Of a stretch of 64,000 nt of DNA, positions 12,804 through 13,285 are shown one piece after another. The position numbers were made by a program, and so were the translations under genes. Under the pieces are notes generated by a model. It was given only the letters and a program-made list of their open reading frames with translations. It was not told the origin of the DNA and did no database searches. Source of the stretch: Escherichia phage Elenatom; the sequence record PP925844.1; one strand, given 5' to 3'. Position 1 is the stretch's first letter. Each line of letters starts with the position of its first letter.

Positions 12804-13285
12804 CTAGCGATAAAAACCAAAATGACGATTAGCTTCAATAATCTTTCTTTCTTCTTCGGACATTCTCCAGCGTAGTCCAACATCAAAATGAGCCCAGACC
12901 ATCTTAACAAATGCATTTATATCTTTAATATCTTCAATAATGAATGTTTTACTTTTAGAAGGTTGACCTGCTAAATTAAGTGCTAATTTAACTTTATCGT
13001 CTTCAAACAGGGCAAAAAGACCATATTCATGAGCTCTTTTATAGCCTTTAATAGTTAAAGCTTCAGAAGAAGAAAACGGTGAATCAGTATTCTGTAAAAT
13101 ATCTTCAGTATGCTTTATAATTAGAATAACATTTTCTGGATATTTTCTTTCTTTTATATCTTTAATTAAAAGATCCGGATTTTCTGCTAAAGGAATAATT
13201 AATGAGCATTTTTATCAAGTGCATTTACTGATTTACCTTCTTTAGACATAAATTCTATTGAATAATGTTTTGCTACTTCAATCAT
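12804..13285 (-). pseudogene. frameshifted gene (about 160 codons in two frames)
   Basis: 28-codon ATG-initiated ORF ends at a stop just after a T-run near 13209-13213; a 135-codon stop-free frame continues one frame over to 12804 with no start codon; no track ORF covers this 480 nt. Confidence 0.55.

Follow-up and report, generated by a model that had tools for sequence, protein, structure and literature searches.

Hot spots of Streisinger frameshift mutation are the A runs in the rII and lysozyme genes of T4, and strand slippage of the Streisinger type is the classic, textbook mechanism for this phage. Contingency loci based on such runs were described for the T-even phages by Gomez, Barrick and Waters. 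In their preprint (bioRxiv 10.1101/2025.10.21.683753) runs of at least six bases in T2, T4 and T6 are given with indels of +1 or -1 at about 3e-4 per run, and fast reversion is shown experimentally for agt and rIIA. Suppl. Table 5 contains for T2 a 6-base repeat entered as 'coding (73-78/471 nt) modA.3', and a repeat entered as 'coding (682-687/780 nt) dam' is tabulated for both T2 and T4, while the T4 list of six-base repeats comes without the modA.3 run. Variant reads at the T2 modA.3 run are given there as 0 of 1922 and 1 of 1990, the latter a 7-base read in population 2, and on these T2 read counts the modA.3 run is no outstanding hot spot.

Mrh, whose gene lies in the same early operon as modA.3, is described as modifying the heat-shock sigma factor of the host and is reported to form a very large complex (PMC8076793). 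The literature search for Mrh returned one 2021 expression paper only, and in the literature covered the search for modA.3 in the context of phages found no paper. The 39-56 region of the T4 map, in which modA.3 is located, has been reported as a nonessential deletion (PMC8262927).

The window analysed in this work comprises 64,000 nucleotides of Escherichia phage Elenatom (PP925844.1), a T4-like phage of the genus Tequatrovirus, and its gene order follows that at the beginning of the T4 map. The closest deposited relative is Escherichia phage Pinarejo, with about 99% identity (99.4% across 25 kb). On the minus strand, positions 12804-13285 correspond to modA.3, the name used in the RB51 annotation. 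The early operon has the order mrh.2-mrh.1-mrh-srh-modA.4-modA.3-modA.2 with modB and modA downstream, in agreement with the annotations of RB51 and Pinarejo, and modA.3 thus occupies the place of its family, between modA.4 and modA.2 and downstream of mrh and srh. The features of this operon are as follows.

14685..14713, minus strand: promoter-like site (TTTACT, 17 nt, TATAAT, with TG), from a consensus scan only
13617..14114, minus strand: mrh, the intact paralog; homologs start at the position of the ATG at 14102 (161 aa)
13278..13442, minus strand: modA.4, the upstream gene, whose stop overlaps the modA.3 start (ATGATTGA)
12804..13285, minus strand: modA.3, putative pseudogene, 482 nt versus 483 nt in the intact relatives (alignment with Pinarejo and RB51)
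12613..12795, minus strand: modA.2, the downstream gene, with its own AGGA Shine-Dalgarno sequence 6 nt before the ATG
12572..12600, minus strand: promoter-like site before modB (TTTACT, 17 nt, TATGAT, with TG), from a consensus scan only

A strong terminator-like hairpin, with 9 pairs and then a T run, is located just past soc (14728-14749), and the promoter-like site at 14685..14713 comes next. Hairpin and near-consensus extended -10 site with its TG would fit a point at which the soc transcript ends and the mrh.2 early operon begins, and the promoter-like site is a likely candidate for the start of the operon which runs from mrh.2 to modA.2. Because of the overlap of the modA.4 stop with the modA.3 start, modA.4 and modA.3 are translationally linked. 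The Shine-Dalgarno sequence of modA.2 sits within the 3' end of modA.3.

Concerning nomenclature, modA.2, modA.3 and modA.4 (12613-13442) are widely labelled 'molybdenum ABC transporter, periplasmic molybdenum-binding protein ModA' in the GenBank records of relatives. The proteins of this region match the phage families PF24070 and PF26838 and no transporter, and the label looks like a name propagated wrongly from the T4 gene modA.

The initial annotation, which was made from the letters of the window alone, had proposed a gene of about 160 codons split across two frames at a homopolymer, and this is what the relatives bear out, as they carry one open reading frame of 156-160 codons at this place. 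In Elenatom such a single uninterrupted frame is not present; instead 28 and 135 codons are found in two frames, which are composed as follows.

13199..13285, minus strand: remaining N-terminal ORF, ATG at 13285, 28 codons, TAA at 13199-13201
13209..13213, minus strand: A5 run, T5 when read on the plus strand, in which one base is missing; gene nt 73-77
12804..13211, minus strand: the -1 frame with the other 135 ModA.3 codons and the stop, identical to Pinarejo

The N-terminal ORF contains 25 native codons followed by three out-of-frame codons (N A H) and the premature TAA, so that the frame stops right after the T run at 13209-13213, as had been noticed; the coordinates and peptides given for it all hold. 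The second frame is indeed open over 135 codons, from 13211 down to 12807 with the stop at 12804-12806, and an in-frame TAA immediately precedes it. The description of this long frame as free of start codons applies to its first 103 codons, which contain no ATG, GTG or TTG, but not to the remainder, where an ATG is found 32 codons before the end (ORF 12804-12902, MVWAHF...).

In the alignment Elenatom has GATAAAAATGC where Pinarejo has GATAAAAAATGC, that is A5 versus A6 at codons 25-26, which read AAA AAA in the relatives with A6. Both Pinarejo and RB51 combine A6 with one ORF of 483 nt, and the expectation that one extra base in the run would fuse the two frames is therefore borne out. The single A gap is the sole difference between Elenatom and Pinarejo over 12650-15100 (about 2.4 kb), and the part of modA.3 that is now out of frame shows no further decay in comparison to Pinarejo. 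A one-base gap without any further decay would mean that the event is very recent. Both frame pieces are 100% identical to the ModA.3 proteins of HP3 and Pinarejo. The six-base run with identical flanks is present in at least 57 phage records, and nearly all of some 490 phage records have A6; it is also found in four out of four IMG/VR contigs and two out of two metagenome contigs matching the flanks. A7 with exact flanks was not detected in the phage collection, and the survey of modA.3 alleles gave no match in GTDB genomes.

When the restored sequence was used as query, about 95 of the 104 ModA.3 protein clusters were full length (156-160 aa) among the matches listed, and the full-length clusters among these matches all carry PF24070. 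Homologs are thus not split, as had been expected in the initial annotation, and the long frame has strong homologs. Pairwise dN/dS among intact modA.3 alleles ranges from 0.13 to 0.39, values which are based on small counts. These data mark modA.3 as a real gene under selection and the Elenatom copy as the exception.

The restored ModA.3 protein of 160 aa matches the Pfam family PF24070 (T4_MRH, 'T4 MRH-like') with E = 7.6e-37 and 126.8 bits, and PHROG 1234 with E = 4.7e-51. The 135-codon frame alone still reaches 111.1 bits (E = 5e-32) over profile positions 25-143 of 144, so both the restored protein and this frame are above the PF24070 gathering threshold of 24.4 bits. With a score of 111 bits the long frame is more than a chance stretch of open codons. 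As a copy divided over two frames, the Elenatom gene is best described as a predicted pseudogene and not as a functional member of PF24070. The neighbouring Mrh matches the same two families, PF24070 and PHROG 1234, and ModA.3 and Mrh are therefore distant paralogs; their direct comparison gives 22% identity and E = 0.003. A search of PDB sequences with ModA.3 returned only noise (E about 0.4), and the AlphaFold2 model of ModA.3, built on a shallow alignment of 15 sequences, has a pLDDT of 45.8, too low for the model to be of use.

The most plausible course of events would begin with strand slippage during replication in the A6 run at codons 25-26, by which one A was removed. Ribosomes starting at the ATG at 13285 would then read 25 native and three wrong codons and stop at the TAA at 13199-13201. 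As the other 135 codons are in the -1 frame and without a usable start, no ModA.3 would be made. Such a loss would be tolerated, with modA.3 belonging to the 39-56 region, without which the phage grows in the laboratory, and with the distant paralog Mrh intact 400 nt upstream. Judged from the reading frames, modA.2 is now preceded by about 400 nt of untranslated mRNA, and it may be somewhat under-expressed through polarity. The promoter-like site on the modB side (12572..12600), if real, would shield modB and modA from any such polarity. Because modA.2 has its own AGGA site and the promoter-like site lies before modB, any polar effect should be limited to modA.2.

The other disruption linked to a homopolymer had been pointed out in dam, and this observation stands.

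15742..15748, minus strand: A7 run in dam versus A6 in other phages; Dam is truncated to 229 aa

The dam frame (15737-16426, minus strand) is followed by a 37-aa ORF (15624-15737), and Dam loses its last approximately 30 residues. Elenatom and Pinarejo are alone with A7 among 181 records, while T2, T4, HP3 and about 180 others have A6. As A7 is shared with Pinarejo, the dam frameshift is probably genuine and was probably inherited in the Elenatom/Pinarejo lineage. Apart from this run, dam has in comparison to Pinarejo an in-frame loss of 3 bp in a TTC repeat at about 15860, resulting in one Dam residue fewer.

Other differences between the two sister phages could be identified as well. At about 18636, in the ORF region 18292-18923 (minus strand), Elenatom has a 10-bp deletion (ATGAAATATC in Pinarejo), which divides an ORF of 213 aa into one piece of 101 and one of 64 aa. 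Each of the 96 relatives with sequence at this site has the ten bases, so the deletion occurs in Elenatom alone, and it is not a homopolymer error. The small ORF at 36737-36910 (minus strand) encodes 57 aa versus 68 aa in Pinarejo and differs at the C-terminus, because a G run near 36757 is not of the same length by one base. Two Pinarejo ORFs, one for an HNH endonuclease (35076-35699) and one hypothetical ORF of about 1 kb (47925-48977), are without a counterpart in Elenatom, at about 35075-35081 and about 47271-47282, respectively; this may represent presence or absence of mobile genes. In total, the ORF-by-ORF comparison over 64 kb revealed only three disrupted ORFs, all of them small and without an assigned function, among them the one divided by the 10-bp deletion, and the long genes are intact. 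When the runs of at least five bases were compared with Pinarejo, 331 out of 334 agreed in length and three differed. At two isolated one-base homopolymer differences, at 24437 and 38879, most relatives share the Elenatom state, which places these changes (or errors) on the Pinarejo side. A general deletion bias in the Elenatom stretch was considered and rejected, because at both positions it is Pinarejo that has the derived state.

The modA.3 run has also changed its length elsewhere. Phage PBM-1 (PV029540) has the same A5, and the gene is unannotated in its record. The haplotype of PBM-1 is distinct, the first SNP on the upstream side being 98 nt away and the first on the downstream side 197 nt, and given these flanking SNPs independent events in PBM-1 and Elenatom seem to be the simpler explanation, while a common origin of A5 could still hold for a tract of less than about 300 bp. 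In the Logan assembly ERR13951886 this run is seven bases long (A7). Variants of -1 and +1 thus recur at this position, A5 on two haplotypes and A7 once, for each of which a sequencing error is possible. Besides changes at the run, modA.3 is interrupted in further ways: a TGG-to-TGA nonsense change at W127 is found in five contigs, including the 168-kb contig L012 (ENA ERZ24909966), phage NiC89 has a frameshift near codon 125, and other frameshifts are located in a T5 run and in the vicinity of codon 77. Short clusters make up 9 of 104 for ModA.3 and 4 of 109 for the Mrh control (p = 0.16), again among the matches listed; a preferential loss of modA.3 was rejected for these matches, since the excess over the control is not significant. 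A coding mononucleotide repeat of at least six bases is given in the ancestral A6, while Elenatom itself now has five. The repeat is not kept across the relatives, as codon 26 encodes E or N in many alleles: the largest cluster (P0062, 485 members) has DKECS, and other alleles have DKNCS.

On balance we regard it as likely that the A5 in modA.3 is a recent deletion by replication slippage in a dispensable gene and that the Elenatom copy is a genuine pseudogene. We infer that the change lies in the DNA of the phage and not in the assembly only, although the latter, a phage with A6 and an intact modA.3 from whose consensus sequence one homopolymer base was dropped, is a less likely case with a certain weight. 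Homopolymer errors are a common class of consensus error among deposited phage genomes, and exactly this type of difference, a one-base gap in a homopolymer, is the only one which separates the two sister genomes over these 2.4 kb. The absence of further decay in the downstream 135 codons would also be expected from such an error. Moreover, the sole other deposited A5 is that of PBM-1, whose record has 121 kb where this type of phage has roughly 168 kb, and the record may therefore be of poor quality. Against an error it speaks that the lengths of 331 of the 334 runs equal those of Pinarejo, so that a general homopolymer problem is not apparent, that at the two other isolated indels the derived state is the one of Pinarejo, and that no long essential gene is broken. 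A run of six bases is also short for a systematic consensus error on high-coverage short reads, and the genome has two lesions which are unlikely to stem from a homopolymer error of this assembly, the 10-bp deletion and the dam frameshift, the latter being present in an independent record as well.

If the base is indeed missing, the gene could in principle still be expressed or be switched on again. That the A5 allele still yields full-length ModA.3, through programmed -1 ribosomal frameshifting at T AAA AAT or through transcriptional slippage on the A run, seems scarcely credible to us. With a -1 shift in the four-codon overlap the product would be either the exact protein (DKKCS) or the natural variant DKNCS, and slippage of the E. 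coli tRNA-Lys at A-rich sites is known. However, with T as its first base the heptamer does not correspond to X XXY YYZ, the downstream 120 nt (13120-13240) fold with an MFE of -11.7 kcal/mol and z = +0.35, with 122 of 200 shuffles folding at least as well, and a suitably spaced stimulator resembling a Shine-Dalgarno sequence was not seen by eye. The homologs are single ORFs, the two-frame layout is not conserved, and the A run itself varies between relatives. Efficient slippage of RNA polymerase requires about 8-9 bases or more, for which A5 is far too short. The initial annotation had suggested a look for programmed frameshift signals; with no canonical heptamer, no structure and no conserved split layout, programmed -1 frameshifting and transcriptional slippage were both rejected. 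Bypassing of the gene 60 type is irrelevant to modA.3, because only a -1 shift is needed. A different proposal is that of an adaptive, phase-variable switch, in which A6 would allow modA.3 to be turned on and off and A5 would be a selected and revertible OFF state, for example one that escapes a host defence sensing ModA.3. It could draw on the occurrence of -1 alleles (Elenatom, PBM-1) and a +1 allele (the Logan contig) at one run, on the other routes by which modA.3 is knocked out in several assemblies, and on the switching of agt and rIIA together with the listing of the T2 run in the preprint (bioRxiv 10.1101/2025.10.21.683753). Nevertheless we consider it very improbable: the run is not conserved (DKECS, DKNCS) and is missing from the T4 table, the tabulated T2 reads show 0 and 1 variants in about 2000, disrupted alleles are not significantly more frequent than in the Mrh control, reversion should be slower from a run of only five bases, and no ModA.3 phenotype is known. 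The broader version, according to which the A runs at modA.3 codons 25-26 and at dam nt 682-687 are working switches for accessory early proteins, is hardly more probable.

Under the favoured reading of a recent slippage deletion, the gap in the ORF track of an otherwise dense operon corresponds to modA.3 with a frameshift. A pseudogene label, or a check against the reads, would be appropriate here, and neither a blank nor an annotation as two ORFs. The locus would add a natural example to the observation that homopolymer runs of T-even phages readily change their length, and another one to the observation that accessory early genes of the 39-56 region can be lost without killing the phage. 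Sister isolates may differ mainly by small lesions of this sort, as seen here with modA.3 (-1), the 10-bp deletion and the dam +1 which both phages share. If A5 is real, Elenatom represents a ready-made natural knockout of ModA.3. If the switch reading were true after all, Elenatom would be a natural OFF variant of a contingency locus and not the carrier of a dead gene, the OFF state of ModA.3 would be favoured on hosts which sense an Mrh-like protein or are protected through it, and some Tequatrovirus lineages might shed and regain accessory early proteins by A-run switches.

Comparing the Elenatom locus with the systems known so far, the T4 and T2 modA.3 genes are its direct counterparts. 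They encode an uncharacterised early protein of 18.3 kDa and have the same operon position, Pfam family and PHROG as the Elenatom copy; they are intact, whereas the Elenatom copy is cut by a one-base deletion and is without the 160-aa product. T4 Mrh, the modifier of rpoH, resembles ModA.3 in its Pfam family, its operon and its similar length (161 aa), but the two share only 22% identity, mrh is intact in Elenatom, and a shared activity is conjecture. With dnaX-type -1 frameshifting of E. coli the locus has in common an A-rich site with lysine codons at which a -1 shift would join two frames, but it comes without the canonical heptamer, the stimulatory elements and the conserved split layout of that type. 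In the kind of change the locus resembles the Streisinger hot spots and the T-even contingency loci of Gomez, Barrick and Waters, with a +1 or -1 change in a coding mononucleotide run of six, and the runs at modA.3 nt 73-78 and dam nt 682-687 both appear in the T2 repeat table of the preprint. In the contingency loci the altered lengths are found in a minority of reads, while in Elenatom they are the fixed or consensus state, and unlike a maintained contingency repeat the modA.3 run is absent from T4 and from many relatives. As a lesion, the one in modA.3 is an ordinary one, at a site of the hypermutable kind already described for the T-even phages.
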